Part shown: one piece after another, positions 25,597 to 62,897 of the stretch
Position numbering within the stretch: the first letter of the stretch is position 1
Layout: every line of letters starts with the position of its first letter
Assembly: GCA_044892525.1 (NCBI GenBank)
Contig: CM097885.1
Coordinates: 21,020,001 to 21,084,000, forward strand
DNA length: 64,000 nucleotides
Reading direction: 5' to 3'
DNA from: Schmidtea polychroa
Taxonomy: Eukaryota
Notes under the pieces: model-generated
What the model was told of the DNA's origin: nothing
The model's database searches: none
Seen by the model: only the letters and a program-made list of their open reading frames with translations
Position numbers and translations under genes: made by a program

Positions 25597-26076
25597 TCTA
25601 ATATATAAAGATGAAAGTTTGTTACCCATAGAATTCCCTACCGTTGAATCTATGGTGCTGAAATTTTACATGTGACTATCATTTGACTCGGGACCACATC
25701 TAGAGGTTGTCCGGTCAGCAATTTACCATATAAATAATAATTTATATGCTTGCTACTTACAGTTGAAAATAATATAATTTAGTCAAAAGTTTTCAAAGCA
25801 GAATTCAAACATGGAGAATTTGAATTTTATTTGATTAGTGAACCAGTTTGCAATTGGAAAAATATTGTCAGTTATTTTTCGATTAAAATTGGAGTGTGTT
25901 TTCGATTTAAGAAATTGAAATTGATTTTAAAAGCTTTTCTTATTGTGAATTAAACATGGAATTGAAGATGTTATAAAATTAATACTGGACCGTAATAACA
26001 TCATTAAACAAAAAATTAATTTAAATGAATTATTATAATAAATGTAAACTCGGGCGAAGCCGGGTACAACAGCTAG
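25597..26076 (+). mobile_element. Non-autonomous Helitron
   Basis: A|TCTAATATATAAAG 5' end; 3' hairpin ACTCGGGCGAAGCCGGGT followed by CTAG|T; no TSD. Confidence 0.7.
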
Positions 26077-26295
26077 TTATCTATATTTAAAATTTATATC
26101 AATTTATAAATAAAATATTGTTTAACTATTTACAAAGTAAAAAATAAAGTTTATTTAAATAAACGAGAAAAGACACGTTGCAGAGATAAACTTAAGATAA
26201 AATTCAAGAGACTAAAAGTTTTGTGCCCGCTGATTTTTCAAACAATTCAAACTCCAATGTTGAACTGTCGACTTCCAATTTTGTTTCTTGTCCAG

Positions 26296-26529
26296 TATGA
26301 GGAAGTTTTATGATGAAGAAATTTTTAAATTGAAAATTTTAAAAATTAAATTTTAGATTAATTTTTAAAAAACAAAATAAGAAGATATTTTAATTAAAAA
26401 TATCTTCGTAGAAAATTTGTTTAAATAAGAAATTTCAAAGAAGATATAATTTGATTTTGATATTTACTGAAATAAAATTTATGGAAACAAAAACTGATTT
26501 TAATGTTTTACAGGATGAACCTCTTAATA
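26296..26529 (+). repeat. 5' LTR
   Basis: 4 differences from the 3' LTR over 234 bp. Confidence 0.95.
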
Positions 26530-27573
26530 TGGTGGCAGCGGTAAACACGGACGCAATCACCGAAAGATTGCTACCAAAGGTATTCTGCCAAGGAGACGAT
26601 TTGGAAAAGTTCATTAAAAGATGCGAAATTTATTTCGACGCCAAGGGAATCACGCAGAAGAAAGATCAGGAAAGATTAACATCTTGCATGATTGATGAGG
26701 ATCTCCTGGAAGTGTACGCCAAAACACTGAAAAAAGCCGAAGGATTCCAGGCTAGATTGCGATTGGCATTCGATCGCGAAAGAGATGTTTTAAAGGATCT
26801 ACAAAACTTGTTGAATTACAAGCGGAAGGGTGAAGAAATAGAAACGTATTTTAAAAAGGTGGAGGACCTTGTTGATAGATTGTTTGAAAATAAAGAATTT
26901 ACCAAAGAGAAATTAACAGCAAGGATGTTAATAGTATGCGGAGAATAAAGAAGTTGAGAAAGAAGTGATACTACGGAAGATAAAAAGCACAGAAGAAATA
27001 AAGGAAACACTAACTCTGATGGACAAAGTATACAAGCAAAGAGATCAGATAAACAGTATGAAAAGTTACGCCAGAGTGGTCTATCAGGAACCACAGGGAA
27101 GAGTACAATACAAGAAGAAAGAACAGAGAGAAGAAAGTATCCGAAGAGAAATGCCAGAATGCTGGTTATGCCACAAAATAGGACACATGAAAATTGATTG
27201 TCCAATAAAAGGTAAAATAGAATGCTGGACATGCCATAGAAGCGGACATATAAGTAGAAACTGTCCAGATAAAAAAGCTCCAAGATGTTTTGGGTGTGGG
27301 AAAGAAGGTCATATAAGAAGATTGTGTCAGGAAATACGTTGTGAAAGATGTAGCAGAAATGGTCATAGATCCGAGGAGTGTTATACAAAGATGAGGTACG
27401 GGAGGGCGACGGAGAGACAAAGATTCACGGGAAACAGATACAGTCGGATAAATGGTATCGAGGAAGAAGAAGAAAGGGAATCGTGTGTAGAGACAAATGA
27501 AGATAATTTTAGGAAGACGTACCCAAACAACAGGGCTCCACCAGTAGAGGAGTTGGTTGGAGCCATATTCTAA
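26529..27573 (+). pseudogene. gag: gag, frameshifted near 26945; four CCHC zinc knuckles
   Basis: Two ORFs in different frames; knuckles CWLCHKIGHMKIDC, CWTCHRSGHISRNC, CFGCGKEGHIRRLC, CERCSRNGHRSEEC. Confidence 0.85.
26530..26542 (+). promoter_or_regulatory. Primer-binding site, tRNA-Leu type
   Basis: TGGTGGCAGCGGT immediately after the LTR, complementary to the tRNA-Leu 3' end ACCGCUGCCACCA. Confidence 0.8.
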
Positions 27574-27581
27574 CAGAAAAT

Positions 27582-30500
27582 TTGATGGGATATCCTCAAG
27601 GAGCAGAAAAGTGGGAGAATGTTGGAAGGGTAAGCGAGAAAGTATACAGGTTCCTAAAGAGAGAAATGTTTGAAGAGGAAGTGGAAAGAATTGGAACCAT
27701 TGAAACGGAGCAGGTTGTTGAAATTTTGTATAACAGAATGCAAGGAAGGCCTAGTATAACAGTAAGGATGAATGGGAAAATTTCGACTGTTTTTTAGACA
27801 CTGGGGCAAGAATCAATGTAATGAGTGTGAACTGCTTTAACAAGCTACGAGGACAACAATTGACGAAAAGTGACGATAAGTTACGATGCGCAAACGAGAG
27901 TACGATCGAGACAATAGGAAAAACGAAGGTGCAAGTAACCATTGGAAATGTTTCGAAGGAAGATATATTCATTGTGGCGGAGAAAGTGACACCAGACGTG
28001 ATTGGAGGAATCGAATTTCAAGAAACATTTGGATTTAGACTGTTAAAAATTAAAGATATCGAGGCTAGTGAAAAAGACAAGAACTATATTTGTAACATTG
28101 AAGCAAAATTTGGCAGAAAAATAAAGGATGAAGAACGATTGATACGAGCGTTGGAACAGTTAAAGATAAATGAAGATAGCAAATTAAAGGAAATTATAAC
28201 AAACAGTGGAAACGTGTTTATGGCAGATAAATGGGATGTGGGTCGCACACATTTGGTAAAACACAAGATAGTTACAAGAGGTGAGCCGATAAACATAAAA
28301 CCATATCGCCAACCACTAAATTTGGAATCAAAGATTGAAGAAGCAATACAAAATTTGTACGAAAATGGAATTATACGGAAATGTAACTCTCCATGGAATA
28401 CACCGCTAATATGTGTATGGAAAAAAGAGAAAAAGGATATTAGACTATGCTTGGACTTTAGACAGCTGAACGCGGTAATAGAGAGGCAGGCATTTCCAAT
28501 GCCAAACATAGACGAGATGTTGGATTTGTTAGGAGGATCCGTCTTTTTCAGCTCAATCGATCTAGGTAATGCATATTACCAAGTGGAACTAGAAGAAGAA
28601 TCATAGGAGAAAACAGTTTTCTCAACAAAGAACGGACAATATTGTTTTAACAGAATGCCGTTTGGAATTACAGCAGCACCAGGTAAGTTCCAAGAAATGA
28701 TGACAAAAGTATTAGGCAAAATAAAGGGAGCAGTGGTGTATTTGGATGACATCTTGATTTATTCAAGCAGTAAAGAGAAACACTATACAATACTCGGAGA
28801 AGTGTTAAAGGCGATTGAGGAAGCAGGCCTAAGGATTAATCCAGACAAATGCCAAATAATAAAGGAAGAAATCAGATTCTTAGGACACATAATCAGCAAG
28901 GAAGGAGTACAGACAGATCCATCTAAAATTCAGGCCATACAGAACTTTGGGAAGCCTAATTGCGTAAAGAAACTCCGAAGCTTTTTAGGTATTTGCAATT
29001 ATTATAGAAGATTCATCAGTGATTATGCAAAGAAGGCAAGGATGTTAGAACAATTATGTAGCGGACCAAGTAACAAAAAATTAGAATATAGTGAAGGAAC
29101 GAATAGCGGGTTTGAGGGATTGAAATTAGCACTCACGACGGCGCCAATCTTATGTTTTCCGGATCTGAAAAAGGAGTTCATTTTAGATACCGACGCTAGT
29201 TTCGATACCATTAGAGCAGTACTTTCACAAAGAGATAAAGATGGAAAGGAAAGAGTAATTGCGTATGGATCACACTCGATGACGAGCAACGAGAAAAGAT
29301 ATTGTATTACAAGAAAGGAACTATTGGCGGTATATTATCTTTGCATTCATTTTAAGCACTATCTCTACGGAAGAAGATTCACGCTCAGGACAGACCACAA
29401 GGCAATCACGTTTATGATGACAACCAAGAAGCCGATTACTTCACAATTCCAAACATGGATCAATTATTTGAGCAGTTTAGATATAAGAGTAGAATACAGA
29501 AAGGGTATTAATCACCAAAATGCAGACATGGTGTCGAGAACTAAATGTGACACGTGTGTTCAATGTCAAATGGCCCACGAAGAAGCTAAGAAAGGAAAGA
29601 TAAAAACCAGATTACTATACTCGATCAGAGAACAAGGAAGAAGCAACATCCAACATGGAATTGTAGAAGAAGTACGAAAGAAAACGATGATACCTGAAAA
29701 TGAGTTACAAGAAACAATAAAGGAAATACATAGACTATTGTGTCATGCTGGAGTCGAGAAGATAGCCGATTATATGAAAGATAGATATGTTGGAAAACAC
29801 CTGTGGAGTCAGATTCAGGAAATTGTTGGAATTTGTGAGATTTGTCAAAAAACCAAGGCTTTAACAATAACAACGAAAGAACCAGTAAAAAAACAAGATT
29901 CGAAGGAAATGTTCGAAATTATATTCGTGGATATATGTGGACCGTTGACAGAAACAAAAGGACGAAAGAAGTATATATTGGGCATAATAGATCAGTATAG
30001 TAAGTATCAAGTCTTGACAGTGATAACAAAACAAGACGAAGAAACAATAAAGAAAACGATTTTAGAAAAGTGGATTTTAAGATTTGGATGCCCAAAGGAG
30101 ATAAGAGTTGATTGCGGAAAGGCGTTTGAATCAGGAATGATGAGAGAATTCACAAAGATGCTAGATATTAAATTATGTTTTTCGAGTCCATACCATCACC
30201 AAACAAACGGTCAGATAGAAAGACAATTCAGGACAATACGGGATTTTATAAATGCTACTTTACAGGATAGAAAGAAGACGGATTGGGCAGAGATATTACC
30301 AGAAGTCGAATTCACTTTAAATGCAACCAAACAAAAAACGACAGGGAAAAGCCCGGCAGAGATAGTTTTTGGAAAAAAGATTAGCAGGGAAAAATGGTAC
30401 GGGTCCAAAGAAATACCGATAAAGGAAGAACTAGAAGAACAAACAAGGAGAAAATTCAATGTAGAAGAAGAAGTATTAGTAAAAGTAGAAACACGCCACA

Positions 30501-30640
30501 AAGGCCAGGACAGGTATGAAGGTCCGTACAAAGTGATAGAGAAAGTGCATGACAGACGATACATCTTAAGAAATGAAGATGGAAAAAGGATCGAAAGAAA
30601 TGTGGAAAAACTTAAAAATTTCTTAAGAAGGAGGATATGA
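27582..30640 (+). pseudogene. pol: pol (protease, RT, RNase H, integrase) with a frameshift near 27790 and an in-frame TAG at 28604-28606
   Basis: Motifs LDTGA, LCLDFRQLN, MPFG, YLDD, DTDAS, TDH, HHCC, VDICGP, VDCG, NGQIER, YEGPY. Confidence 0.92.
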
Positions 30641-39680: not shown

Positions 39681-40391
39681 CAGGGGTAATCATATTTTTC
39701 CGTACACACAAAAAATGTTTAAAAATAAAACTCCCAGAAGTTTTTATTTTTTAATTTTATCTCTGTAATTAAAATTAAGAGAAAATTTTCTTTGTATATC
39801 TGTATATGCATACTTAAAGTACCTCAAGGTTCTATGAACTGTTGATAAAGAGGCCAGAATATTTAATTTCTGCTTTAAATCTCGAGCAGTGCATTTCTCA
39901 TTTAACTTAAAAGAGTGTTCTAACTCGGTTTTCATATGCCTTACTTCACATTTTGAAATTTTTGGCTTTGGTCCTCTTTTCCCTTTTATTATTGTCCATT
40001 TTTGGATAATATATTGTACGGATGATCGTGCAACTTGGTATTCTTTTGAAATACATCCATATGACAAAGCATCTTCATAATCCTCATAAATATTCTTTCT
40101 TAATGTTAAATCAAGCTATTTTAGATAATACAATCAAAAATATATAATATGTATAAAAAAACTAACCATATATATATATATATATATTTGTGCTAAAGTT
40201 GAATATGTATGGAAAAATATGATTTTATTAAAACTAAATTTGTGAAATTGGTAAACCTACTTAACTTTATACTAAAATTGTATATTAAAACAAACACGCT
40301 AATACAATATTGCTTAATTAAATAACAAAACTTTTATTTATTGCAATGGATTTAAATAAATCTAGTGTACGGAAAAATTTGATTACCCCTG
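39681..40391 (-). mobile_element. Internally deleted Tc1-like transposon
   Basis: TA-CAGGGGTAATCATATTTTTCCGTACAC...GTGTACGGAAAAATTTGATTACCCCTG-TA. ORF 39744-40067 resembles the transposase HTH region (SYGCISKEYQVARSSVQYII...RGPKPK). Confidence 0.85.
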
Positions 40392-42985: not shown

Positions 42986-43166
<181 letters not shown>

Positions 43167-43218
43167 TAAAACAATAAAATGATAATTTAAGCCTTTTGCT
43201 GCAAATAATGTATTTAAT

Positions 43219-43257
43219 GAAAGAATTTTCGACTATACGATAGTCCTTGTCAATCTC
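43219..43257 (-). ncRNA. Candidate minimal variant hammerhead ribozyme in the Penelope 3' repeat
   Basis: GAGA-UUGACAA-G-GACUAU(CGU)AUAGUC-GAA-AAUU-C-UUUC; folded by eye. Confidence 0.45.
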
Positions 43258-43653
43258 CTGGAATTTAGCAATGTTCTTCCCCAAAATACCTTTCAATCTT
43301 TCTTTGATTTCCTTTCTCTTAATTCTCATTGGTTGTAAATATAATGAATTGTTTTACTAAAAACTTTTAAAATTTTTTACATTTAAAATTTCAAAATGAC
43401 ACAAACTAAAAATTTTTAAATTTTTTTACAGCTTCTATAATTAGCTTCTAGAAGCCTAATAAAATATTTGAAAATATTTTAAATAAAGCCTCCAATAACC
43501 ACTTATATATGCTATTTAAATATTTCAATAAATGTGTCAATTTTGATTTTCAAACCCTATTTTTTAAAATTTTTTTTTATATTATTCTAATTATTACTTT
43601 TTAATTTATTCTATTTTTTTAATTTCTTTATATATTGTCAGTTATTCTCAAAG

Positions 43654-44575
43654 TCAATGACAACAGATCAAATTCATGATTTCATTGATTTCTTCTTTAG
43701 TGTTGATCTTTGGCTGTCTGTTTATGATGAGAATTGCTTCTTTGATTCTGACATTTTTCTTTTGGATGTTTCCATTAGCTATGATTTTTATTGAAATATT
43801 TTTTCTTTCTTCTGTTGGCTGACACTGCCGGAGATGTCTGCCCAACGATGATGTTCCACCAGGATCTAGATGTTCTTTAACTCTTTGGTGCAATGTCCTG
43901 AGGGTACTTCCAATGTAGATTTCATTGCATACATTGCACGTGATGCAATAGACGATGTTTTTTCTAAAGCACATATCTTTCGGTGTCTGGCAGTTTTTCA
44001 TTGTGCAATTGTTTTCTCTATTTATGTTGCCTGCCAGAGCCCTTCTCAATGTCCAAGATTTATGTGCTATCCGAATTGGAAGACCGGTACGTTTAAGTTC
44101 TTTCAAGATCTTGAAGTCGAGTATGTCACTGATGAATGGGATATTCAGATAGAAATATTTCTGATTCTTTTGTGTTAATTCCCTAGATCTTCTTGGGGTA
44201 GAATTCATTCTTTCAATGTCCTCACCTTGGTATCCGTTTCGGTGTAGGATTTTATTGAAATTTGATTGCTCTTTAAAGTTTTCGTTTTTCTCCGTTTTTC
44301 TCGTTTCTTATGACATGTACTTTCTGTAAGTATGGAAGCGCTGATCTTTGGTGCATAAATATTTCTTTGCGAGCTGGTTTTCTGTAGAACCCGTATGTTG
44401 GAGTATTTTCTTCTATTTTGATTCTCAAATCCAATAAATTGAGGGATCCATCTTCTTCCGGATATTCGATTTCGAACTTAATATCTTGATGAGCCGCATT
44501 GAATGTATGAAATATTTCCTCCGCTTCTTTTTTGTTTTTGGTCGTGATGAAGATATCATCTACATATCTTGCATA
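43654..44575 (-). pseudogene. Penelope RT C-terminal part and GIY-YIG endonuclease; frameshift near 44290
   Basis: YARYVDDIF, LNLLDLRI, FYRKP, LHRNGY, NIVYCITCNVCNEIYIGST..LHQRVKEH. Confidence 0.9.
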
Positions 44576-47500
44576 AGTAGGTAGATAGTAGCCTACGGCA
44601 GCAATGACCCCCCCCCCGGGGGGGGGGGGGGGGGGTTCTGCTGCCGTAATTTTTTTGCTGCAACTTTTGATTACGCAATTTTTCACACTATAGTGAGGGG
44701 GTCTCGATGGTCCTGGGATTTTCAATACAAAAAAATTTTTTCTATACAAAAACGATGGTCCTGGGATTTTCAATACAAAAAAAATTTTTCTATACAAAAA
44801 TCCGACTACCACTAAAAAAGCATGGAATTTTCAGACTATAGTGAGGGGGTCTCGATGGTCCTGGGATTTTCAATACAAAAAATTTTTTTCTATACAAAAA
44901 TCCTACTATCAATAAAAAAGCCAAGGATTTATCACGCTATAGTGAGGTGAGTCTCCTTGGTCCTGAGAAATAGGTGTTCTACACTAAAAACGTGGTAATT
45001 TAAGGTCTCGGGATATTTTCAATACAAAAAGCTGGTCTACACTAAAAAGCATGGTAATTTAAGGTCTCATGATATTTTCAATACAAAAAGGCGGTCTCAC
45101 TAAAAAAGCATGGAATTTTCAGACTATAGTGAGGGGGTCTCGATGGTCCTGGGATTTTCAATACAAAAAAAATTTTCTATACAAAAACGATGGTCCTAGG
45201 ATTTTCAATACAAATAAATTTTTTCAATACAAAAACGATGGTCCTGGGATTTTCAATACAAAAAATTTTTTTCAATACAAAAATCCGACTATCAATAAAA
45301 AAGCATGGAATTTTCAGACTATAGTGAGGGGGTCTCGATGGTCCTGGGATTTTCTATACAAAAATCCGACTATCAATAAAAAAGCATGGTAATTTAAGGT
45401 CTCAGGATATTTTCAATACAAAAAGCCGGTCTACACTAAAAAAGCCAAGGATTTTTCAGACTATAGTGAGGTGAGTCTCCTTGGTCCTGAGAAATAGTTG
45501 GTCTACACTAAAAAAAAACGTGGTAATTTAAGGTCTCAGGATATTTTCAATACAAAAATCCGACTACCACTAAAAAAGCCAAGGATTTTTCAGACTATAG
45601 TGAGGCGAGTCTTCAATAAAGAAGCATGGTAATTTAAGGTCTCAGGATATTTTCAATACAAAAAGCTGGTCTACACTAAAAAAGCCAAGGATTTTTCAGA
45701 CTATAGTGAGGTGAGTCTCCTTGGTCCTGAGAAATAGGTGGTCTACACTAAAAAACGTTGTAAATTTTTCAATTAAAGTAAATAATGGTTCTAAAAAATT
45801 AAATTATAGTAAATTATGGCTCAAATTTTTAAATTACAGTAAATTATGGTTCTAAAAATTAAATTAAAGTTAATTATGGCTCAAATTTTTAAATTACAGT
45901 AAATTATGGTCCTAAAAAAATAAATTACAGTAAATTATGGCTCAAATTTTTAAATTACAGTAAATTATGGTCCAAATTTTTAAATTACAGTAAATAATGG
46001 TTCTAAAAATTGAATTACAGTAAATAATGGTCCTAAAAAATTAAATTACAGTAAATTATGATCCAAATTTTTCAAATACAGTAAATTATGGTCCTAAAAA
46101 ATTAAATTACAGTAAATTATGGTCCAAATTTTTCTATTACAGTTAATTATGGTCCTAAAAAATTAAATTAAAGTAAATTATGGTTCTAAAAATTAAATTA
46201 AAGTAAATTATGGCTCAAATTTTTCAATTACAGTAAATAATGGTCCTAAAAAATTAAATTACAGTAAATTATGGTCTAAATTTTTAAATTAAAGTAAATT
46301 ATGGTCCTAAAAATTAAATTAAAGTAAATTATGGTTCTAAATTTTAAATTAAAGTAAATTAAGGTTCTAAAAAATTAAAATAAAGTAAATTAAGGTCCAA
46401 ATTTTAAATTAAGTAATCAATGGTAAAAAAATTTTAAATAAGTAAATTGAAGTAATAATTTTTAAATTAAGTAATCAATGGTAAAAAATTTTAAATAAGT
46501 AAATTAAAGTAAGATTTTAAAATTTAATTACAAAAAGTTGAAGGTGTTTGAGAATTGAAATTTTTTAATGAAAATTTTCAATGGTAATTTTTAATGAAAA
46601 TTTTTATGGAATATTTTTTTTAAGTAATTTTTAATGGAAATTTTTATGAAATATTTTTCAATGATAATTTTAGATGGAAATTTTTAAGATAATTTTTAAT
46701 GAAAATTTTTATGAAATATTTTTCAAAGACAAATTTTAATAATAATTCAACAACAAATCAACAACTTAGTACCAACAACCAGTAACTTACGAACATGTAT
46801 TACCAACCAGATACCTACAACCAGTTACCTGATACCAAGTACCAACAACCAAAAACATGCAACCAACTAGGTACCAAGTACTAACAACTAACTACCACCT
46901 ACCAAGTACCTACAACCAACTACTAAGTACTAACAACCAAAAACAACCAACTAGGTACTAGATACCAAGTACTTACAACAAACATCAACCAAGTACTTAC
47001 TACCAACTACCAAGTACTTACAACTAGTTACTAACAACTAGTTACCTGCTACCAAGTACTTACAATTAGTTACTAACAACCAGTTACCTGATACCAAGTA
47101 CCTACAACCAACTACTAAGTACTAACAACAAAAAACAACGAAGTACCTACAACAAATTACCAGATACCAAGTGCCTACAACTAGTTACTAACAACTAGTT
47201 ACCTGATACTAAGTACCTACAACCACCTAACAAGTACTAACAACCAAAAACAAGCAACCAAACAGGTATCAGATACCACCTACTAAGTACCAACAACCAA
47301 CTAGTTACCAGATACCTACAACTAGATACTAACAACTAGGTCTCAAACAACTAAATACTAACAACCAGGTACTAAGCATTAATTACCAACTACTAAGTAC
47401 CTACAACCTACAACTAGATACTAACAACCAGTTACCTGATACCAAGTACTAACAACCGTCAACAACCAGGTACTAAGCCTTATCAACCTACAACTAGTTA

Positions 47501-48651
47501 CTAACAACCAGTTACCAACTACTAAGCATTAATTACCTACAACTAGTTACTAACAACTAGATACCAAGTACATACAACCAGACACTAAGCATTATCAACC
47601 AAGTACTAACAACTAAATACTAAACACTAACAACCGACAATAACCAGGTACTAAGCATCATCAACCAACTACTAAGTACCTACAACTAGATACTAACAAC
47701 CAGTTACCCATTAACTAGCTACAACCAGCACTCAACTAGCTACCAACTACTAAGTACCTACAACCAACTAGCTACCACCTACCAAGTACTAACAACCAGT
47801 TACCAACTACTAAGCATTAATTACCTACAACTGGTTACTAACAACATGATACCAAGTACATACAACCAGACACTAAGCATTATCAACCAAGTACTAACAA
47901 CTAAATACTAAACACTAACAACCGACAATAACCAGGTACTAAGCATCATCAACCAACTAATAAGTACCTACAACTAGTTACTAACAACTAGATACCAAGT
48001 ACATACAACCAGACACTAAGCATTATCAACCAAGTACTAACAACTAAATACTAAACACTAACAACCGACAATAACCAGGTACTAAGCATCATCAACCAAC
48101 TACTAAGTACCTACAACTAGTTACTAACAACTAGATACCAAGTACATACAACCAACTAGCTACCAACTACCAAGTACTAACAACCAGTTACCAACTACTA
48201 AGCATTAATTACCTACAACTAGTTACTAACAACTAGATACCAAGTACATACAACCAACATCAACCAGGTACTAGATACCAAGTACTAACAACCAAGTAAC
48301 TTACCTAGTAATAAGCACTGTCAACTAGATACCAAACACTTACAACCAGATGACCACATGAAATTATTGGTTAAATATGAAAATAAGGGTTATAATTAGT
48401 TGTTAAGTAAATTATGGTGTAAAATTAAGAAATAAAGAATAATTAGGTAAATTAAAGTAATAATTTTTAAAAAAGTAAATTAAGGTTCAAATTTTAAATT
48501 AAATAAGTAAATTAAAGTAATAATTTTTAAATAATTAATGTACTAAGTAAATTAAACTAAGATTTTTAAATTTATTATCAAAAGATTGAATAACCACCAA
48601 CTTTTTTGAGAAATGTAATTTATAATGTAAATTTAAATGGAAATTTAAATG

Positions 48652-48687
<36 letters not shown>

Positions 48688-51600
48688 TACTAATAATAAT
48701 TCAACAGTTACCAACAATCGGTTACTAAATATTTTTAACTAGGTGCTGACAAATAAGTACCAAATACTTACAACATGATACCACGTACTAACTAACTCTC
48801 AAACAACCAGATACTTACAACTAGCTACTAAATATTCTTCACTGTATTTTATGAAATGCTTTTTAAATTTATTTTTTATCTATCTTCAAAAATATATTTA
48901 ATTACAATCATTAGAAAAACCTTTTCAAATTTAACAAAAATGATGATTTTCATCAAAAAACCACAACTCATCACCACGTGGAATTCAAAATAATTACAAT
49001 GAAAGACTAATGAATTCTAATTTACAAAACATTCTTCTTTTAAATGATAACTACTGACTTATTATTGCAAAGTAAAAATCGCATTCAATAAATACTTATT
49101 GTTGATCAGTTTTATTATATATACTCTGAGTTTATCCGACAGGATGTTTTGACCACCCGAAGGGTACAGGTCGTAAGGGTACTGGTCGTAAGGGTACTAG
49201 TCGTAGGGGTATTGGTAACACTCAACCCCCACCTACTCATTAATTAGTTACCATGTACTAACAACTAGGTTTCAAACAACTAAATACTAAGTACTAACAA
49301 CTAACAACAACCAGGTACTAGATACCAAGTACTAACAACCTACAACTATATAACAACAATCAGTAAACAACACTGTACCAACTACCAAATACAAGAAACC
49401 AACAACTTAGTACCAACAATCAACTAACAACACATAAAAATAATAGCAATTAAATAAAAAAAATTATTCTTCATCGCATACACTATTTTCTTATCAAAAT
49501 CTAAAAAGTCAACCAACTACTTACAACCAACAACTATGTACTAACAAATTGATCTTTAAAAGCAAATACTCATCACTTGAAAAATTAGATGGAAAATTAT
49601 TTGAACTCAAGGCATCAATAACTAGGTAAAATTTGATTAAATTATTGTAAAAATTTAAATTATTCAAAATAAATATCATAAAAATTTAATTAATGGACAG
49701 GAAAAAATTCTAATCATTAATCATCCAATAAATAAAAAAAATACTGATCATTCAAGTTGAATCAACTAAGATAATAAATTAATAAAAGTTTTGAAATAAG
49801 ATCTAGATTTAGATTAAATAAAATTAATTTTAATTATTTTTGTAAAAGTAATACATGTACTCAAATTGATTGACTGATTTCTCAATATATTCAAAAAATC
49901 TGTATGAATTCATTAAAATTATCAAAGTCAGCAATCTACAATAAAAATAATTATCATTAAATTCCAAAAGAGACTAGATAACTAATGATAACATCTAACA
50001 AACCAGTAAATTCATTCAAATGACAATAATTGGTATATCCAAGTGAATTCTCCAATAAAAGCATCTAAAAAGCATCATTTTCCCCCTAAATATATCAATA
50101 TTTAAAGATTGGTATTTTAATGATAAATACTTGTTAAAGATCATATATTCTCCTCAAACTAACAAGATTCCTTAAAATCCCTTAAATGACTATATTTCAA
50201 CCCTTAATTCATATTATTACAAATAATTCATTAAAATCATCTAAAAAGCATCATTTCCCCTAAATATATCAATATTTAAAGATTGATATTTTAATGATAA
50301 GTACCCGTAAAGGATCATATATTCCCCTCAGACTAATAAGATTCCTTAAAATCCCCTTTAAATGACTATAATTCTAACTTTAATTCGTATTATCACGAAT
50401 ATTTCCCTATAAAACATGTAAAATCATTAACCCTAAATAATTTATAAAATCTAATGATAAAACTGGTTATAATTAATTTTTTGTTTTTCACTGTACTCGA
50501 TATTTTAAATAAATATTACTACAATATAACTGACTAGGTCCCATTGAAAGATTAAATTTATCCATTCAATAAAATATATTTCTTCAAATGATCATTTTTA
50601 CCAATATTCAACCGATTTAATTACTAATTAAAATCAAGATTTCTTCCAATAAAGATCAATTTTATTTAGTCAATGTTTTAAGTCCATATTTCTCAACTTT
50701 TGTCGTTGTCCGTCTAAATAAAGATAAAAATAAATTAAAGTTGATATCAATCCCAATTATCTGTAAAGATTTCATTGTCAAAACCAAGTAAATCGATCAT
50801 TATCCCTACTTAATAAAACATTGTTCTAAATTAATTTACTGTGCATTAATCACAACCTAATAAAACGATATAATTATTATTGATTCATAACTGACTAATT
50901 GACATTTCCCTTAAAACAATGATATTTTACCAACATCACCATTAAAAAAATCATATATTCCCATCTTAACCCATCTCTCATTAAATTTAACCGACTATAT
51001 TCCAATCTTAACCCATCCTTCATTAAAGTCAATCGACTATATCTCCCTTACAATGATATATTCCCATCTTAACCCATCTCACATTAAATCTAACCGACTA
51101 TATCCCCTTAAAAGATCATATTTTCCCCATCTTAACCGATCACTCATTAAATCTCACCGACAATATCCCATCTTATCCGATCTCTCAGCAAATATTTCTA
51201 CCCTTTTAAACATCTATCCGATTATATCCCTTATTTTCCCTAAAGATTTCACCCACTTGAGCCCTTTAATATATATCAATCCTCTTAAAATCCTCAGAGA
51301 ACTTCAAAAATATGACTTTTAATTAATTGTTATAGAACCAGACAAATAATAAGAGCCCACTAAAAGATCAAAATTCACTAAATTTTCTACAAATATATAC
51401 CATCAAATACTGGAGATGATATATATTGATTGATCATAATTCTTCATCGATTCAGCCAATCATTTTCAAGCGCTATCAGCAAACTAAATTTCAGTATATT
51501 CTACAATCATTTTCAAGTAAATTTAAATTCCTTGTTAAAGTTAACTAGTTTCTTAGCTCATGTTTTTTAAAGTTCATCAATGAGTAAATATTCTTAGAAA

Positions 51601-54600
51601 ATTATTGAAAAAATTATTTAGTGAAATATATTACAAACTTATCATTAAAAATTTATTCTATCACTTGAAATTAATTTTTATTTAAAAACTATTCAATAAA
51701 ATACCACTAATTATCAAGAAATTAATTAAATTTATCAATCAAATTTATCACCATTAAAACTTTTAATCAGTCAACATGAAATTCTTAGAAAATTGTTCAA
51801 TATCCTCATAAAAATTTATCCTACCACTTGATTATTGTACAAACTCTAATTATTAACCTCATTAAAAATTAAAAATACATCCAATTATCAAGAAATTAAT
51901 TAAATTTATCTTAGAACTAACTTTGAATTATTAAATATTCATTCAATAATCATGAAATCCACAAAAATAATAGAAATTTACAAAAATCAAAGAAATTCAC
52001 AAAAATGATAAAAATTCATGAAAATGATAGAAATTCACAAAAACGATAAAAATTCATAAAAATTATAGCAATTCGCAAAAATAATAGGAAATTCACAAAA
52101 ATGATAGATATCCACAAAAATTACAGATAATCAAAAAAATTACGGAAAATAATAGAAATCCGCAAAAATAATAGAAATTCACAAAAAAACGATAAAAATT
52201 CACAATAAAAAAACGATAAAAATTCACAAAAAAGATAGAAATTTACTTGAATAAAACCATCAACTCTAAAAATTATGAATACCTTAAACAACAAATTTGC
52301 CTAAATAATCATTCAAATAAAAACATTAAATACCTTTACGACTAATACCCTTACGACATGTTGAATGTGAGTAGTACCCTTTGTGAGCAATACCCATAGG
52401 GGGACAGAATATTTTGTCGGATAAACTCAGAGTATATATTAATTAACTCATTTTTCATTGAATTAGTAAAATTATCATAATTTCGATAAAAATTCTAAAG
52501 TGGTAAGCAATGTAAAGAGAATCATTCTTTAAACTTTGATAAAATTAACAATGAAGGTGGTAAGAATCTTCATTAAAGTGAGGAAATTATTCATTACTCG
52601 ATTCAAATGGGTGAAATTAATTGGTAGAATAATTCATTAATGGATCATTGAATGGGCATAGATAAGAAGAAGGTTGATAAGAATGCAAATATATTAATTG
52701 AATTTATTTAAAATTATTTCATAAAATTCATAAATTTAATAAAAAAAAAACTTTTAAAACAAATATTTGTGGGGATGTTTTAAGTGAATAATTAATGGAA
52801 AATCGGGGGGATATAAGTGATAATAATTAATGGAAAATCGGGGGGATATAAGTGATAATAATTAGTGGAAAATAGAGAATCGGGGGGATATAAGTGATAA
52901 TAATTAGTGGAAAATAGAGAATCGGGGGGATATAAGTGAGAAGGATATGTAATTTAAACTAGTTTATTACATAACAAGCCGTAACTAGTTTATTACATAA
53001 CAAGCTGTGAATGTTATTTTATTGAGAATTATTGATTAGGTCTTTTTTTTTTTTTAATTTTTGAATAGGTACTTTAATACCTTAATAATTTAAATGTTTT
53101 GATTTACACTAAATAATTTCTAAATCAATTACCCTTTTCAATCAAAATAAGTTAATATTCAAATATAAGTCTTATAAAATACAATTAAAATTAAATACAT
53201 CACAAATTTTAAGTTTTTTAAATTCTCAAATAAATGTTAACAAGATATTAATTTATTAATTATTATAGATTTTTTAAACTTATTATTGAAATTAAACAAT
53301 AGAATGATATTCAAAATATATACAATTTTAAAATATAATTAAAATTAAATTACATACTTTAAAAATTTAGTAAAATGTTGGTAAAATACCATTCACAGCT
53401 TGTTATGTAATAAACTAGTTACGGCTTGTTATGTAATAAACTAGTTTAAATTACATATCCTTCTCACTTATATCCCCCCGATTCTCTATTTTCCACTAAT
53501 TATTATCACTTATATCCCCCCGATTCTCTATTTTCCACTAATTATTATCACTTATATCCCCCCGATTTTCCATTAATTATTATCACTTATATCCCCCCGA
53601 TTTTCCATTAATTATTCACTTAAAACATCCCCACAAATATTTGTTTTAAAAGTTTTTTTTTTTATTAAATTTATGAATTTTATGAAATAATTTTAAATAA
53701 ATTCAATTAATATATTTGCATTCTTATCAACCTTCTTCTTATCTATGCCCATTCAATGATCCATTAATGAATTATTCTACCAATTAATTTCACCCATTTG
53801 AATCGAGTAATGAATAATTTCCTCACTTTAATGAAGATTCTTACCACCTTCATTGTTAATTTTATCAAAGTTTAAAGAATGATTCTCTTTACATTGCTTA
53901 CCACTTTAGAATTTTTATCGAAATTATGATAATTTTACTAATTCAATGAAAAATGAGTTAATTAATATATACTCTGAGTTTATCCGACAAAATATTCTGT
54001 CCCCCTATGGGTATTGCTCACAAAGGGTACTACTCACATTCAACATGTCGTAAGGGTATTAGTCGTAAAGGTATTTAATGTTTTTATTTGAATGATTATT
54101 TAGGCAAATGTGTTTAAGGCATTCATTGATAATTTTTAGAGTTGATGGTTTTATTCAAGTAAATTTCTATCATTTTTATGAATTTCTATTATTCTTGTGA
54201 ATTTCCATAATTTTTTGTGAATATCAGTAATTTTTGTGGATATCTATCATTTTAATGAATTTTTATCATTTTTGTAAATTTCTATTATTTTTGTGGATTT
54301 CTAACATTTTTGCAAATTTGATGTTTATTGAATGAATATTTAATAATTTAATGCTAATTCTAAGATAAATTTAATTAATTTCTTGATAATTGGATGTATT
54401 TTTATTGACTTATTTTTTTTATTTTTAAATAAAAATTTATTTCAATGAGGTTAATAATTAGAGATTTTACAATAATGAAGTGATATGATAAATTTTTATG
54501 AGGATATTGAATAATTTTCTAAGAATTTCATGTTGACTGATAAATTTAATTGATAAATTTAATTAATTTCTTGATAATTAGTTGTATTTTATTGAATAGT

Positions 54601-57600
54601 TTTTAAATAAAAATTAATTTCATTGACAATTAGGTTAATAATTAAGTGATTTTTGATGATAACTTTGTAATATATTTGACTAAATAATTTTTCAATAATT
54701 TTCTAAGAATATTTACACATTGATGCACTTTAAAAAACATAAGCTAAGAAACCAACTTTATCAATGACTTTAAATTTACTTGATAATTATTGTAGGATAT
54801 ACAGAAATTTAGTTTGCTGTTATTGCTTGAAAATGATTGGTTGAATCGATGTAGAAAATATTGATTTTTGATCTTTTAGTGAACTCTTACTACATAGCTA
54901 CTAAATTATTTCAATGGAAGAATATTTGGTGTCTATAACAATTAAGTCATATTTTTGAAGTTCTTTAAAGATTTTAAGAGGATTGATATATATTAAACGG
55001 CTCAAGTGGGCGGAATCTTTAGGGAAAATAAGGGATATATTCGGTTAGATGTTTAAAGGGGGTAGAAATATTTGGTGAGAGATCGGTTAAGATGGGATAT
55101 TGTTGGTTAAATTTAATGAGGGATGGGTTAAGATGGGAATATATGATCTTTTGAGGGGATATAGTCGGTTAGATTTAATGAGAGATCAGATAAGGTGGGA
55201 ATATATCATTGTAAGGGAGATATAGTCGATTGACTTTAATGAAGGATGGGTTAAGATTGGAATATAGTCGGTTAAATTTAATGAGAGATGGGTTAAGATG
55301 GGAATATATGATTTTTTTAATGGTGATGTTGGTAAAATATCATTGTTTTAAGGGAAATGTCAATTAGTCAGTTATGTATCAATAATAATTATATCGTTTT
55401 ATTAGGTTGTGATTAATCCATTGTATATTAATTTAGATTTATGTTTTAGAACAATGTTTTATTAAATTTTCTATTAATTATCCAGGGTTTTATTACGTAG
55501 TGTTAATGACCGATTTACTTGGTTTTGACAATGAAATCTTTATAGATAATTGGGATTGACTTCAACTTTAATTTATTTTTATCTTTATTTAGGCGGAGAA
55601 TGACAAAAGTTGAAAAATATGGACTTAAAACATCGACAACAACTAAATAAAATTGATCTTTATTGGAAGAAATCTTGATTTTAATTAGTAATTAAATCGG
55701 TTGAAAATTGGTAAAAATGATCATTTTAAGAAATATATTTTATTGAATGGATAAATTTAATCTTTCAATGGGACCTAGTCAGTTATATTTATTTTAAATT
55801 TCGAGTACAATGATTTACAAAAATTTACAGTGATTAACAAAAATTTTATTATAACCGGTTTTGTCATTAGATTTTATAAATTCTTTAGGGTTAATGATTT
55901 TACATGTTTTATAAGGAAATATTCGTGATAGTAGGAATTATAGTCATTTGAAGGGATTTTAAGCAATCTTATTAGTCAGAGGTAAATATATAACCTTTTA
56001 AGGATATTTATCGATAAAATACTAATCTTTAAAGATATAGTTATTTCAGGGAAATTTGATGCTTTTTAGATGATTTTAGTGAAATATTTGTAATAATACG
56101 AATTAAGGGTAGAAATATAGTCATTTGAGGGATTTTAAGGAATCTTGTTAGTTCGAGGTGAATATATGATCTTTAACAAGTACTTATCGATAAGATACCA
56201 ATCTTTAAATATTGATATATTTCAGGGAAAATGATTCTTTTTAGATGATTTTATTAGAGAATTCGCTTGAATATACCAATTATTTAAATGAATTTACTGG
56301 TTTGTTAGATGTTATCATTAGTTATCTAGTCTCTTTTGGAATTTAATGATAATTATTTTTATTGTAGATTGCTGACTTTGATAATTTTAATGAATTCATA
56401 CTGATTTTTTGAATATATTGAGGAATTAGTAAATAGATTTGAGTACATGTATTACTTTTAAAAAAATACTTAAAATTAATTTTATTTCAAATAATTTATT
56501 CAATCTAAATCAATTATCTACTAGATCTTATCTTATTAATTTATTATCTTAGTTGATTCAACTTGAATGATCAGCATTTTTTTTTATTTATTGGATGATT
56601 AGAATTTTTTCTTGTCCATTAATTAAATTTTTATGATATTTATTTCGAATAATTTAAATTTTTTACAATAATTTAATCAATTTTTATCAAGTTATTGATG
56701 CCTTGAGTTCAATTAATTTTCCATCTAATTTTTCAAGTGATGAGTATTTGCTTTTAAAGATCAATTTGTTAGTACATAGTTGTTGGTTGTAAGTAGTTGG
56801 TTGACTTTTTAGATTTTGATAAGAAAATAGTGTATGTGATGAAGAGTATTTTGTATTTAATTGCTATTATTTTTATGTGTGGTTAGTTGATTGTTTGTAC
56901 TAAGTTGTTGGTATCTTGTATTTGGTAGTTGGTACAGTGTTGTTTATTGATTGTTGTTATATAGTTGTAGGTTGATATTTGTTAATTTCTCGATGGGTTT
57001 TGATGGTGGTTGTTAGTAGTTGGTATCAGGTAACTGGTTGTTAGTACTTAGTAGCTAGTTAATGGGTAGGTTGTGGTTGAGTGTTACCAATACCCCTACG
57101 ACTAGTACCTTTACGACCAGTACCCTTGCGACCAGTACCCTTACGACCTGTACCCTTAGGGGGTCAAAACATCCTGTCGGATAAACTCAGAGTATATATA
57201 ATAAAACTGATCAACAATAAGTATTTATTGAATGCGATTTTTACATTGCAATAATAAGTTATCATTTAAAAGAAGAATGTTTTGTAAATTAGAATTCATT
57301 AGTCTTTCATTGTAATTATTTTGAATTCCAAGTGGTGATGAGTTGTGGTTTTTTGATGAAAATCAACATTTTTGTTAAATTTAGACATTTTGAAAAGGTT
57401 TTTCTAATGATTGTAATTAAATATATTTTTGTAGATAGATAAAAAATTAATTTAAAAAGCATTTCATAAAATACAGTGAAGAATATTTAGTAGTTAGTTG
57501 TAAGTATCTGGTTGTTTGAGAGTTAGTTAGTACGTGGTATCATGTTGAAAGTATTTGTTAGCACCTAGTTAAAAAATAATCAGTAACCGATTGTTGGTAA

Positions 57601-57617
57601 CTGTTGAATTATTATTA

Positions 57618-57680
<63 letters not shown>

Positions 57681-60600
57681 CATTTAAATTTCCATTTAAA
57701 TTTTCATTATAAATTACATTATTATAAATTACTTATTTTAAATTTTTAACTTTAATTTACCTAATTATTCTTTATTTCTTAATTTTACACCATAATTTAC
57801 TAACAACTAAATATAATCCTTATTTTCATATTTAACCAATAATTTCATGTGGTCATCTGGTTGTAAGTGTTTGGTATCTAGTTGACAGTACTAGGTATCT
57901 TGAACTTGGTTGTTAGTACTTGGTGGTTATTCAATCTTTTGATAATAAATTTAAAAATCTTACTTTAATTTACTTATTTAGCTTTAATTTAAAATTTGAA
58001 CCATTGGTTACTTAATTTAAAATTTGAACCTTAATTTACTTTTTTAAAAATTATTACTTTAATTTACCTAATTATTCTTTATTTCTTAATTTTACACCAT
58101 AATTTACTTAACAACTAAATATAATCCTTATTTTCATATTTAACCAATAATTTCATGTGGTCATTGATTAATTGACGAAGATTTGCATCTAAAATTAACA
58201 TTGAATATCCCAGAAAACTTTCATCTTAAATTGACTTTAACTTTAATATTTTAGACCATTGATTAGTTAATTTCAAAATTAAATATTAATTTACTTATTT
58301 AACCAATAATTTCATGTGGTCATCTGGTTGTCAGTGCTTGGTATCTAGTTGACAGTGCTTAGTACTAGGTATCTAGTTGTTAGCTGGTTGTTAGTACTTA
58401 GTATTTAGTTGGTTGATAATGCTTAGTACTTGGTAGGTGGTTGTAGGTGCTTAGTAGTTGGTAACTGGTTGTTAGTACTTGGTATCTAGTACCTAGTTAG
58501 CTGGTTGTAGCTAGTTAATGGGTAGGTGGTTGTAGGTACTTGGTAACTGGTTGTTAGTATCTAGTTGTAGGTACTTGGTAGGTGGTTGTTGAGTAGTTGG
58601 TATCAGGTAAATAGTTGTTAGTAACTAGTTGTAAGTACTTGGTATCTGGTTGTTAGTTGTTATCTGGTTGTGAGTAGTTGGTATCAGGTTGTTAGCTGGT
58701 TGATAGTACTTGGTATCTGGTAATTATTTGTAGGTACTTGGTTGTTTGAGAGTTATTTAGTACGTGGTATCTAGTTGTAGGTACTTGGTATCAGGTAACA
58801 GGTTGTTAGTAACTAGTTGTAAGTTGTAAGTGTTTGGTATCTAGTTGACAGTGCTTAGTACCTGGTTGTTGTCGGTTGTAGGTACTTGGTATCTAGTACC
58901 TAGTTGGTTGTAGGTACTTAGTAGTTGGTAATTAATGCTTAGTACCTGGTTGTTGTTGGTTGTGAGTACTTGGTATCTGGTAACTGGTTGTTAGCTGGTT
59001 GATGTTGGTTGTTAGTACTTGGTATCTAGTTGTTTGCTGGTTGTAGCTAGTTAATGGGTAGGTGGTTGTAGGTACTTGGTAACTGGTTGTTGGTATCTAG
59101 TTGTAGGTGGTTGTATGTACTTGATATCTAGTTGACAGGGCTTAGTACTTGTTATCTAGTTGTTAGTACTTGGTATATAATGCTTAGTATCTGGTTGATG
59201 TTGGTTGTAAGTACATAGTTGGTTGTAGGTACTTAGTAGTTGGTAACTGGTTGTTGGTATCTAGTTGTAGGTATCTGGTTGATGTTGGTTGTAAGTACTT
59301 GGTATCTAATTGACATGGCTTAGTACTTGGTTATTGTCGGTTGTTATTATTTGGTATCTTGTACTTGGTATCAGGTAACTGGTTGTTAGTATCTAGTTTT
59401 AGGTAACTGGTTGCAAATACATGTTCGTAAGTTACTGGTATTTGGTACTAAGTTGTTGGTTTGTTGTTGAATTATTATTAAAATTTGTCTTTGAAAAATA
59501 TTTCATAAAAATTTCCATCTAAAATTATCATTGAAAAATATTTCTTAAAAATTTCCATTAAAAATTAACTTAAAAAATTATTCCATAAAAATTTCCATTA
59601 AAAATTACCATTGAAAAATATTTCATTAAAATTTTCATTAAAAAATTTCAATTCTCAAACACCTTCTATTATTTCAACTTTTTGTTAATAAATTTTAAAA
59701 TCTTACTTTAATTTACTTATTTAAAATTTTTTACCATTGATTACTTATTTAAAAAATTATTACTTTAATTTACTTATTTAACTTTAATTTTAATTTTTTA
59801 CTTTGATTACTTAATTTTAAAATTTGGACCATTATTTACTGTAATTTAATTTTTAAGAACCTTAATTTACTTTAATTTAAAAATTTGGACCATTATTTAC
59901 TTTAATTCAAAAATTTGGACCATAATTTACTTTAATTTAAAAATTTGGACCATTATTTACTTTAATTGAAAAATTTGGACCATAATTTACTTTAATTTAA
60001 TTTTTAGAACCATAATTTACTGTAATTTAATTTTTTAGAACCAATATTTACTGTAATTTAATTTTTTTAGAACTATTATTTACTGTAATTGAAAAAATTG
60101 GACCATAATTTACTGTAATTTAATTTTTTAGGACCACAATTTACTGTATTTGAAAAATTTGGATCATAATTTACTGTAATTTAATTGTTTAAGACCATTA
60201 TTTACTTTAATTGAAAAATTTACCACGTTTTTTAGTGTAGACCACCTTTTTCTCAGGACCAAGGAGACCCACCTCACTATAGTCTGAAAAATCCTTGGCT
60301 TTTTTAGTGTAGACCGCCTATTTGTATTGAAAATATCCTGAGACCTTAAATTACCATGCTTTTTTATTGAAGACCGCATTTTTCTATTGAAATTCTCAGG
60401 ACCAAGGAGACCCACCTGAATTGACCTAGAAAAATCCATGCTTTTTTAGTGACAATCGGATTTTTGTATTGAAAATATCCTGAGACCTTAAATTACCATG
60501 CTTTTTTATTGAAGACCGCATTTTTCTATTGAAATTCTCAGGACCAAGGAGACCCACCTGAATTGACCTAGAAAAATCCATGCTTTTTTAGTGACAATCG

Positions 60601-61376
60601 GATTTTTGTATTGAAAATATCCTGAGACCTTAAATTACCATGCTTTTTTTATTGAAGACCACCTTTTTGTATTGAAAATATCCTGAGACCTTAAATTACC
60701 ATGCTTTTTTATTGTAGACCAGCTTTTGTATTGAAAATATCCTGAGACCTTAAATTACCATGCTTTTTTATTGATAGTCGGATTTTTGTATTGAAAATAT
60801 CCTGAGACCTTAAATTACCATGCTTTTTTAGTTTAGACCAGCTATTTCTCAGGTCCAAGGAGACTCACCTCACTATAGTCTGAAAAATCCTTGGCTTTTT
60901 AGTGTAGACCACCTATTTGTATTGAAAATATCCTGAGACCTTAAATTACCATGCTTTTTTATTGATAGTAGGATTTTTGTATAGAAAAAAAAATTTTTGT
61001 ATTGAAAATCCCAGGACCATCGAGACCCCCTCACTATAGTCTGAAAATTCCATGCTTTTTTAGTGAGACCGACTTTTTGTATTGAAAAAATTTTATTTGT
61101 ATTGAAAATCCCAGGACCATCGAGACCCCCTCACTATAGTCTGAAAATTCCATGCTTTTTTAGTGAGACCGCCTTTTTGTATTGAAAAAATTTTATTTGT
61201 ATTGAAAATCCCAGGACCATCGAGACCCCCTCACTATAGTGTGATAAAAAAAAATTTGGACCAAAAATCCCTGAAAGCAAAAAAATGAGTTGGGAACAAT
61301 TGCGTAATAAAAATTTGGGAACAAACCCCCCCCCGGGGGGGGGGTAATTGTTCCCGTAGGCTACTATCTACCTACT
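44576..61376. mobile_element. Element B: 16.8-kb non-coding palindromic element, same family as element A
   Basis: Ends AGTAGGTAGATAGTAGCCTACGG...CCGTAGGCTACTATCTACCTACT. 6-bp TSD TGCATA at 44570-44575 and 61377-61382. Arms ~44576-53013 and ~53390-61376 with a ~375-bp spacer. Confidence 0.92.
52310..54110. repeat. Inner near-perfect inverted repeat of element B (~700-bp arms)
   Basis: ~52310-53013 versus 53390-~54110; contains ATCGGGGG(G)ATATAAGTGA x4 and AACTAGTTTATTACATAACAAGC x2. Confidence 0.9.
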
Positions 61377-61880
61377 TGCATAGAAACCGATGGGTTGTAT
61401 GGTCCTCAGTGTCTGTCGTTCGAGGTTATCCATAAAGATGATTGCTAGCAGTCCTGATATGCTAGAACCCATAGGCAGACCTTTAACTTGTTTATAGATA
61501 TTTTTTTCAAAGGTAAAATAGGTGTTCTCGAGGATAACAGTAAGTAGTTTGGTGATATTCTCGATATTCATTTCCTTTATTAACAAGTTGCTTTCTCTTA
61601 ATTTCTTTTCTAAACATTGAATAGCCTCTGTTGGTTCGATAGATGTGTATAGTGATACGACATCAAGACTAAATGGGTATTGGAATTCTCTATGATAAAT
61701 CATGTTATTATTTAGTCTTGTCATGAGGCAGTCGCTGCTTTGAAGATGGTGTGGTATCGTGTCTAATAAAGGTTTCAAGATCTTTGCAAGGAGCCAACTT
61801 GTTTTAGTTGTTGGTCCATTTTTGTTGGACACTATAGGTCTAATTTTGATACCAGGACCCTCTTTGTGAGTTTTAATTAG
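61377..61880 (-). pseudogene. Penelope RT N-terminal part (5'-truncated)
   Basis: IKTHKEG..IRPIVS, FSLDVVSLYTSI, YKQVKGLPMGSSISGLLAIIFM, ending IGFYA at the TSD. Confidence 0.9.
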
Positions 61881-62868
61881 GAATATCCCATTCATCAGTG
61901 ACATACTCGACTTCAAGATCCTGAAAGAACTTAAACGTACCGGTCTTCCAATTCGGATAGCACATAAATCTTGGACATTGAGAAGGGCTCTGGCAGGCAA
62001 CATAAATAGAGAAAACAATTGCACAATGAAAAACTGCCAGACACCGAAAGATATGTGCTTTAGAAAAAACATCGTCTATTGCATCACGTGCAATGTATGC
62101 AATGAAATCTACATTGGAAGTACCCTCAGGACATTGCACCAAAGAGTTAAAGAACATCTAGTTCCTGGTGGAACATCCTCGTTGGGCAGACATCTCCGGC
62201 AGTGTCAGCCAACAGAAGAAAGAAAAAATATTTCAATAAAAATCATAGCTAATGGAAACATCCAAAAGAAAAATGTCAGAATCAAAGAAGCAATTCTCAT
62301 CATAAACAGACAGCCAAAGATCAACACTAAAGAAGAAATCAATGAAATCATGAATTTGATCTGTTGTCATTGACTTTGAGAATAACTGACAATATATAAA
62401 GAAATTAAAAAAAATAGAATAAATTAAAAAGTAATAATTAGAATAATATAAAAAAAAATTTTAAAAAATAGGGTTTGAAAATCAAAATTGACACATTTAT
62501 TGAAATATTTAAATAGCATATATAAGTGGTTATTGGAGGCTTTATTTAAAATATTTTCAAATATTTTATTAGGCTTCTAGAAGCTAATTATAGAAGCTGT
62601 AAAAAAATTTAAAAATTTTTAGTTTGTGTCATTTTGAAATTTTAAATGTAAAAAATTTTAAAAGTTTTTAGTAAAACAATTCATTATATTTACAACCAAT
62701 GAGAATTAAGAGAAAGGAAATCAAAGAAAGATTGAAAGGTATTTTGGGGAAGAACATTGCTAAATTCCAGGAGATTGACAAGGACTATCGTATAGTCGAA
62801 AATTCTTTCATTAAATACATTATTTGCAGCAAAAGGATTAAATCATCATTTTATTGTTTTAAATAATA
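61881..62868 (+). repeat. Inverted Penelope 3' copy (pLTR-like), including a GIY-YIG fragment ending at 62373
   Basis: Near-identical reverse complement of ~43160-44146. Confidence 0.9.
62771..62809 (+). ncRNA. Second, identical copy of the candidate hammerhead ribozyme
   Basis: GAGATTGACAAGGACTATCGTATAGTCGAAAATTCTTTC. Confidence 0.45.
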
Positions 62869-62897
62869 AATGCTGCTACCAAGCAATCATCATTTTA

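Follow-up and report, generated by a model that had tools for sequence, protein, structure and literature searches.

The element and its insertion site

We analysed a stretch of 64,000 nucleotides from Schmidtea polychroa, referred to as the window (GenBank assembly GCA_044892525.1, contig CM097885.1, positions 21,020,001 to 21,084,000 of the forward strand). The window contains a gene-less foldback element of 16,801 bp with Polinton-type ends (44576-61376), here called E2, which interrupts the reverse transcriptase (RT) gene of a Penelope-like element. It also contains a sister element, E1 (1599-13739), which lies inside a coding Polinton. An earlier note, made from the sequence alone, had described E2 as a palindrome that split the Penelope RT next to its catalytic motif and had moved as a unit.

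E2 is flanked by a target-site duplication (TSD), TGCATA, at 44570-44575 (left copy, plus strand) and 61377-61382 (right copy, plus strand), which reads Tyr-Ala on the minus strand. When flanking repeat lengths of 3-11 were tested, 6 was the sole matching length, and the chance of this 6-mer at the local composition is 3.3e-4. The motif AGTAGGTAGATAGTAGCC is read at both ends, and the 16-mer occurs four times in the window, only at the ends of E2 and E1. Read on the minus strand, the reconstructed empty site is open in a single frame, which runs through IQPIGFYARYVDDIF with 0 stops, against 18 and 15 in the other frames. The two halves of the RT match RVT_1 positions 7-143 and 149-184, and eight intact Penelope-type proteins (P0001 among them; 51-57% identical), picked from 95 matches, align gap-free across the break. 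With no stop in the restored frame and these relatives continuous, the in-frame rejoining proposed earlier is borne out.

The junction was also compared, over the region 44000-44700, with contigs from four public runs of four studies (X1, X2, X7, and X9, out of 24 listed). In all four, contigs of uninterrupted Penelope copies diverge from the window at 44575 and resume with the letters from 61383 onward (agreement 0.72-1.0), and the boundaries of E2 are therefore exact. The earlier note had named beforehand a difference of uninterrupted copies at this junction as what would speak against it; the copies are continuous there in 4/4 runs. Contig cover is low just inside E2 in X1, X2, and X9, where 44602-44700 was skipped as repeat, and is not read as absence of E2. 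The length scan, the end motif and the empty-site contigs confirm both the boundaries and the 6-bp TSD, and together the exact ends, the TSD and the empty site support the view that E2 moved as one unit.

The host, an EN+ Penelope-like element, lies on the minus strand; its RT is followed by a GIY-YIG endonuclease, and its 3' part is present a second time in inverted orientation. The 5' part of the RT (61383-61880, minus strand) is truncated at the inversion junction. The 3' part of the RT, the endonuclease (43654-44307) and the 3' end lie on the other side of E2 (43159-44569, minus strand). The inverted, 5'-truncated copy, which covers the endonuclease part, occupies 61881-62869 (plus strand) and is followed by a one-sided extension of ~30 bp and an AAT microsatellite. 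Compared with the relative P0006 (841 aa), the RT starts only around residue 361, which places the 5' truncation inside the RT, and 20 bp present in other copies are missing at ~44296, where the frame is split. Over 44000-44575 the host departs from nearly all of the family depth at two positions and at this deletion. The host copy was dead with or without E2. Since it was already dead, the landing of E2 two codons before RYVDD is likely due to chance and the position beside the catalytic motif likely incidental; a functional meaning of the insertion next to RYVDD was considered and rejected in view of the state of the host. The position given in the earlier note is real, but a meaning for it is not supported, and the split of the RT motif is in itself an ordinary nested insertion. 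The layout is as described for EN+ Penelope-like elements with a C-terminal GIY-YIG domain (PMC8557442). The order of RT and endonuclease, the 5' truncation, the inverted truncated copy on the 5' side, the one-sided tail of ~30 bp and the microsatellite flanks all have counterparts in that description, and against it the host shows nothing unusual.

The inverted copies of the host (43159-44146 and 61881-62869) differ by five substitutions and one single-base indel in ~988 bp, in agreement with the earlier proposal that the host is young. The later insertion of E2 is likewise supported.

Organization of E2

The two arms of E2 (8,446 and 7,995 bp) surround an AT-rich central loop of 360 bp (53022-53381), which is covered by contigs of three runs. 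The term palindrome is a loose one, as the arms are unequal in length and only ~89% identical over aligned columns. The outer left arm (44576-52289, plus strand) consists of tandem arrays (48/59/100-bp, 30/61-bp, 13-bp, 7-bp-based, and 19-bp units) with unique blocks, and is 5-10% diverged from the outer right arm (54115-61376, minus strand). The inner arms lie at 52290-53021 (plus strand) and 53382-54114 (minus strand). Tandem arrays make up much of each arm (72 TRF rows).

No match to E2 was found by tblastn (E<=0.01) with six relatives of the protein-primed-type DNA polymerase B (pPolB), eight proteins of the window Polinton and two Penelope proteins, a query set that held no protease. The same queries and a scan of open frames, of which the longest stop-free one is 135 aa, yielded no transposase in E2. 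A scan against Rfam gave nothing credible, the best result being a sub-threshold microRNA match (E=0.15). We also considered whether E2 could be two half elements joined head to head, and ruled this out by the lack of an internal end motif at >=14/18.

The terminal 23 bp (44576-44598, plus strand) are the same at both ends of E2; both ends of E1 depart from them at two positions. At 44594-44649 (plus strand; z -4.45) lies a subterminal hairpin centred on a C-run and a G-run. The right end has a hairpin of the same kind with another stem sequence (z -5.0); the hairpin is weaker in E1 (z -1.7 and -1.8) and absent from the end of the window Polinton (z -0.45). Between the two ends of E2 (44594-44665 and 61305-61358) the stem is swapped, GGCAGCA/TGCTGCC at one and GGGAACAA/TTGTTCCC at the other, with pairing kept, and a downstream repeat of the hairpin motif changes together with the stem sequence.

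The inner arm and loop were followed in 30 bins over 52200-53381, all of which are covered in X1 and X9 and 25 in X7. The contig records on this region number 28,775 in X1, 4,809 in X9, and 57 in X7, although contig depth is not a copy number. Cover by so many contigs indicates that the family is abundant and that the loop is not peculiar to E2.

Mismatched arms around a near-identical core

The divergence of the arms is uneven along E2. In well-aligned columns, the arms differ at 171/1746 in the outer arrays, at 82/1513 (~5%) over 48561-50707, and at 62/855 over 50708-51953, but by one substitution (1/706) in the inner arms (52290-53021). The similarity breaks sharply at ~52290. Identical runs in the outer arms reach 181 bp at most, and beyond the shared terminal 23 bp the arms differ from base 24 onward. 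The outer arms (82/1513) are about tenfold more diverged than the inverted copies of the host (5/988; Fisher P 3e-13).

The inner arms share several alleles that are minor in the family. One of them, at 52617, is present in both inner arms and absent from >=99.8% of the depth in X1 and X9. These shared minor alleles indicate copying between the two inner arms. The mismatch of the outer arms probably predates the insertion, because the hybrid arms go with an intact TSD. The dated, mismatched arms outside a near-identical core are what is new in E2; the mismatch had been overlooked in the earlier note.

The sister element E1

E1 is 12,141 bp long and has the TSD TACTAT. It shares its ends with E2 and has a different TSD, so the two copies in the window are independent insertions. 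Its arms show 12 differences in 4,219 columns (99.7% identical), with a longest identical run of 1,997 bp. E1 lacks the equivalent of E2 50708-54270, a central deletion of 3,563 bp, and ~575 bp of the left arm. The junction of the central deletion (6742-6743) joins the equivalents of E2 50707 and 54271 inside a short word of the TATCATT/TGTCATT type. At 84 informative sites outside tandem arrays, stretches of E2-left and E2-right type alternate in the E1 arm as a patchwork, with 30 runs against 43 expected (P 0.0025). Beside E1 lies a ~301-bp tandem duplication with an ATT microsatellite (13740-14230), the second unit of which represents the empty target site of E1 (14030-14052).

The coding Polinton and its relation to E2

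The segment of the coding Polinton to the right of E1 spans 14041-24931 on the minus strand, with its right end at 24931. It encodes, on that strand, a double jelly-roll (DJR) major capsid protein (16626-17849), an integrase with a chromodomain (19104-20186), and an A32-type ATPase (20788-21414). Two further open reading frames (ORFs) are TBP-like (21514-21951; PF00352, E 2e-14) and weakly Bcl-2-like (23855-24169; E 0.002). The integrase frame contains an in-frame isoleucine run derived from an ATT microsatellite. The predicted structure of the capsid protein (pLDDT 90.6) matches the capsids of iridovirus, PBCV-1, and virophage (best E 1.6e-17). The N-terminal part of a pPolB at 3-1274 (minus strand) runs off the window and is 47% identical to P0216, which carries PF03175.

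Seventy-five metagenome loci carry a related capsid protein. The integrase is found in 22 of them, the ATPase in 10 and the polymerase in 4, most of the loci being short; the TBP-like ORF is found in 8/75 and the Bcl-2-like ORF in 0/75. The pPolB part and the capsid gene are co-oriented in the window, and convergent in 4/4 metagenome relatives that have both (L003, L007, L031, and L064). This may reflect a family-level rearrangement or two abutting elements. A search of viral contigs for the major capsid protein confirmed 0/16 candidates. The end motif of E2 gave no match in the metagenome contigs; its single match in the viral contigs (L001), an isolated 18-mer, was taken as chance.

Two features tie E2 to the coding Polinton. 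One is the end: the right end of the Polinton agrees with the first 21 bases of E1 at 17/21 and of E2 at 15/21, and no match at 17/21 arose when the 35,058 bases outside the elements were shuffled 200 times. The other is a block of ~100 bp, which apart from microsatellites is the one sequence linking E2 to the window Polinton (E 1e-28). The Polinton block (24339-24446) has four copies in E2, an inner pair at 87% (52343-52443, plus strand, with the mirror copy at 53961-54061) and an older, outer pair at 78-80% (49105-49187 and 57130-57211), and two copies in E1 (82%). The related end and the shared block support the Polinton affiliation proposed for E2.

Contig depth on the block is 5-20x that of neighbouring bins in X1 and X9. 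X2, which carries the label of another species, covers 11/30 bins of 52200-53381, almost only those of the block, and the missing cover elsewhere in this region is not read as absence. The depth peak and the X2 cover make the block look like a conserved cis element. It is a candidate promoter, origin, or packaging signal. Its predicted fold is weak (-5.7 to -9.4 kcal/mol, values that have no shuffle control). The block (24339-24446 and 52343-52443) includes the near-palindrome GACAAAATATTTTGTC, together with the word ATAAAC and a run resembling TATA, and in the Polinton it lies upstream of the Bcl-2-like ORF.

Origin of E2 and of its unequal arms

Because E2 has a 6-bp TSD and AG...CT ends, both of them Polinton features in the account of PMC8097293, it acts like a non-autonomous Polinton, and from its sequence it is best read as one that moved in trans. 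It is not an autonomous Polinton, and the Polinton of the window is a relative rather than a proven helper. We favour, with reasonable though not strong confidence, the view that E2 is a gene-less foldback element that integrated as one linear molecule through the integrase of a helper, and is probably a hybrid of the arms of two family members. As suggested by the ends and the TSD, the protein-primed polymerase of the helper would copy E2 from its AGTAG ends, and the helper integrase would insert it. Identical arms, and hence perfect palindromes of the E1 kind, would result from fold-back copying. Before integration, the outer arm of one parent would then have been joined to the centre and the other arm of a second parent, by a crossover or a switch of template either near 52290 or near the mirror position ~54115. 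The matching TSD of E2 points the same way: the Galileo chimeras of Drosophila, which are ascribed to ectopic exchange, are described with non-matching target sequences (PMC3573991), and such a mismatch would be expected if copies exchanged arms after they had inserted.

Several observations weigh against this view. As a helper, the window Polinton is no exact fit: 4-6/21 bases are different at its end, where the C/G hairpin is also missing. At the DNA level, neither E2 nor the ~100-bp block nor the Polinton end region has a match in any of the 75 metagenome Polinton loci (E<=1e-3). Among the contig pieces listed, none bridges a junction of E2 by >=31 bases per side. The age of the host rests on five substitutions, a figure that conversion between its inverted copies could have lowered, and the patchwork of E1 shows that conversion among family copies does occur. 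The data fit a pre-integration hybrid, a post-insertion conversion tract, or an old unequal-arm lineage with a homogenised centre alike.

The last two of these keep the non-autonomous Polinton origin and differ as to the arms, which would have become unequal in place by a long ectopic conversion tract, or would belong to an old unequal-arm lineage in which the inner 0.72 kb was homogenised by local conversion or template switching. We regard this as possible but considerably less probable. In a family as abundant as this one (the 28,775 contigs matched in X1) donors would be plentiful, E1 is a mosaic of arm types, conversion has been invoked for the Galileo chimeras (PMC3573991), and the rare alleles shared by the inner arms fit local homogenisation equally well. 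A post-insertion tract, however, would have to span ~7.7 kb and stop inside the terminal 23 bp; the outer arms retain no long identical remnant and the break is sharp; and whole-arm homogenisation does occur, as the long identical run of E1 shows.

That E2 is instead a cut-and-paste element of the Foldback/Galileo kind, moved by an unrelated DDE transposase and carrying the Polinton block as cargo, seems to us improbable. Its long, internally repetitive inverted arms without genes do resemble Galileo copies that consist of two terminal inverted repeats (TIRs; PMC3573991), and the link to the window Polinton amounts to ~100 bp and the end motif. The TSD, on the other hand, is 6 bp in 2/2 copies against 7 bp in Galileo, the longest TIR given for Galileo is 1.26 kb (PMC3573991), the AG...CT ends match the neighbouring Polinton end far above chance, and the length of E2 is that of Mavericks (PMC8097293). 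It is very improbable that E2 is no mobile unit but a chimera that the assembly made of two copies, or the product of a local accident of folding back. Long palindromes of a high-copy family are hard to assemble, no piece among those listed spans E2, and E2 is known from the assembly and contigs rather than from long reads. Yet both junctions restore the Penelope sequence exactly as it is found in four runs, the window holds a second copy, E1, which has these ends too but a TSD of its own, and the inner arm and loop are covered in full in X1 and X9. A chimera is also made unlikely by the arms, which are already different at base 24, next to the unique junctions.

Size of the elements

Intact vertebrate Mavericks have a mean length of 16,862 +/- 1,678 bp, which the authors read as a constrained size (PMC8097293). 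As the earlier note had stated, E2 is within the Polinton range; its length falls within ~13-25 kb and equals the vertebrate mean as given in that source. E1 would be ~16.3 kb if its two deletions (3,563 bp and ~575 bp) were restored, and as it is a deletion derivative, its 12.1 kb was ruled out as a refutation of a size constraint. The sizes of E2 and E1 are compatible with a packaging constraint, as far as two copies go; without any capsid, E2 would also reach this size if a unit of ~8 kb were doubled.

A further possibility, which we hold to be doubtful, is that the palindromes are the gene-less satellite genomes of an animal Polinton virus. As snap-back molecules of full length (~16-17 kb), they would be kept at capsid size; the polymerase of a helper would copy them from their hairpin-bearing ends, and they would recombine with one another extrachromosomally before integration, with E2 as a caught hybrid. 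The ~100-bp Polinton cis-signal, conserved and present in up to four copies, would serve packaging or replication. For animal Polintons, neither virions nor replication intermediates have been observed (PMC8097293, 10.1101/2023.08.22.554363).

Other features of the window

Genes of a Gypsy-type long terminal repeat (LTR) retrotransposon lie at 26412-30640 (gag with a zinc knuckle, protease, RT, RNase H, and integrase), with a stop near 28606. A fragment of a Tc1/mariner-type transposase is found at 39744-40115 (HTH_SB, E 9e-8). To the right of the Polinton end, the sequence at ~24935-26080 ends with CTAG after a short, GC-rich motif that resembles a hairpin, an arrangement reminiscent of a Helitron 3' end.

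Relation to known elements and significance

Non-autonomous Polintons are reportedly known, from Repbase and from the work of Kapitonov and Jurka in 2006. The non-autonomous derivatives in Repbase are gene-less or gene-poor, have Polinton ends and 6-bp TSDs, were moved in trans, and are reportedly internal-deletion forms. E2, by comparison, is a whole-length palindrome of tandem arrays. The foldback architecture with chimeric arms is likewise known, from Galileo. A literature search, with Repbase and subscription papers outside its scope, found no description of whole-length palindromic gene-less Polintons.

E2 shares with Polintons/Mavericks the 6-bp TSD, the 5'-AG...CT-3' inverted ends and the size, as these are described in several sources (PMC8097293, 10.1101/2023.08.22.554363, PMC6431247, PMC11161782), but unlike autonomous members it lacks the pPolB, integrase, ATPase, and capsid genes. 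Its inverted repeat, at ~8 kb per arm, makes up 98% of the element, whereas those of vertebrate Mavericks are given as 46-1,447 bp (PMC8097293). The end motif of E2 is AGTAGG (AGTAG...CTACT ends), against (AGT)2 or (AG)3 in the Mavericks of the same source. Galileo/Foldback elements of Drosophila resemble E2 in their long inverted arms with internal repeats, in two-TIR copies that have no genes, and in the occurrence of chimeric copies (PMC3573991). Galileo differs from E2 in its P-superfamily transposase, its 7-bp TSD, and TIRs of up to 1.26 kb (PMC3573991), compared with a 6-bp TSD and ~8-kb arms in E2. The Galileo chimeras, 12 of 170 copies in that account, have arms from different subfamilies and are ascribed to ectopic exchange; their target sequences do not match, in contrast to the matching TSD of the mismatched arms of E2.

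In a gene-less palindromic derivative of high copy number, what a Polinton requires in cis comes down to the ends, a hairpin, and one shared block; how arms get copied and exchanged is recorded in every copy of the family. E2 has an internal clock in addition, in that the insertion is dated by the young host Penelope; the divergence of the arms is ten times what this clock allows. If hybrids with intact TSDs recur, this would mean that Polinton-type genomes recombine before integration, and that the arms are not re-copied at every jump.

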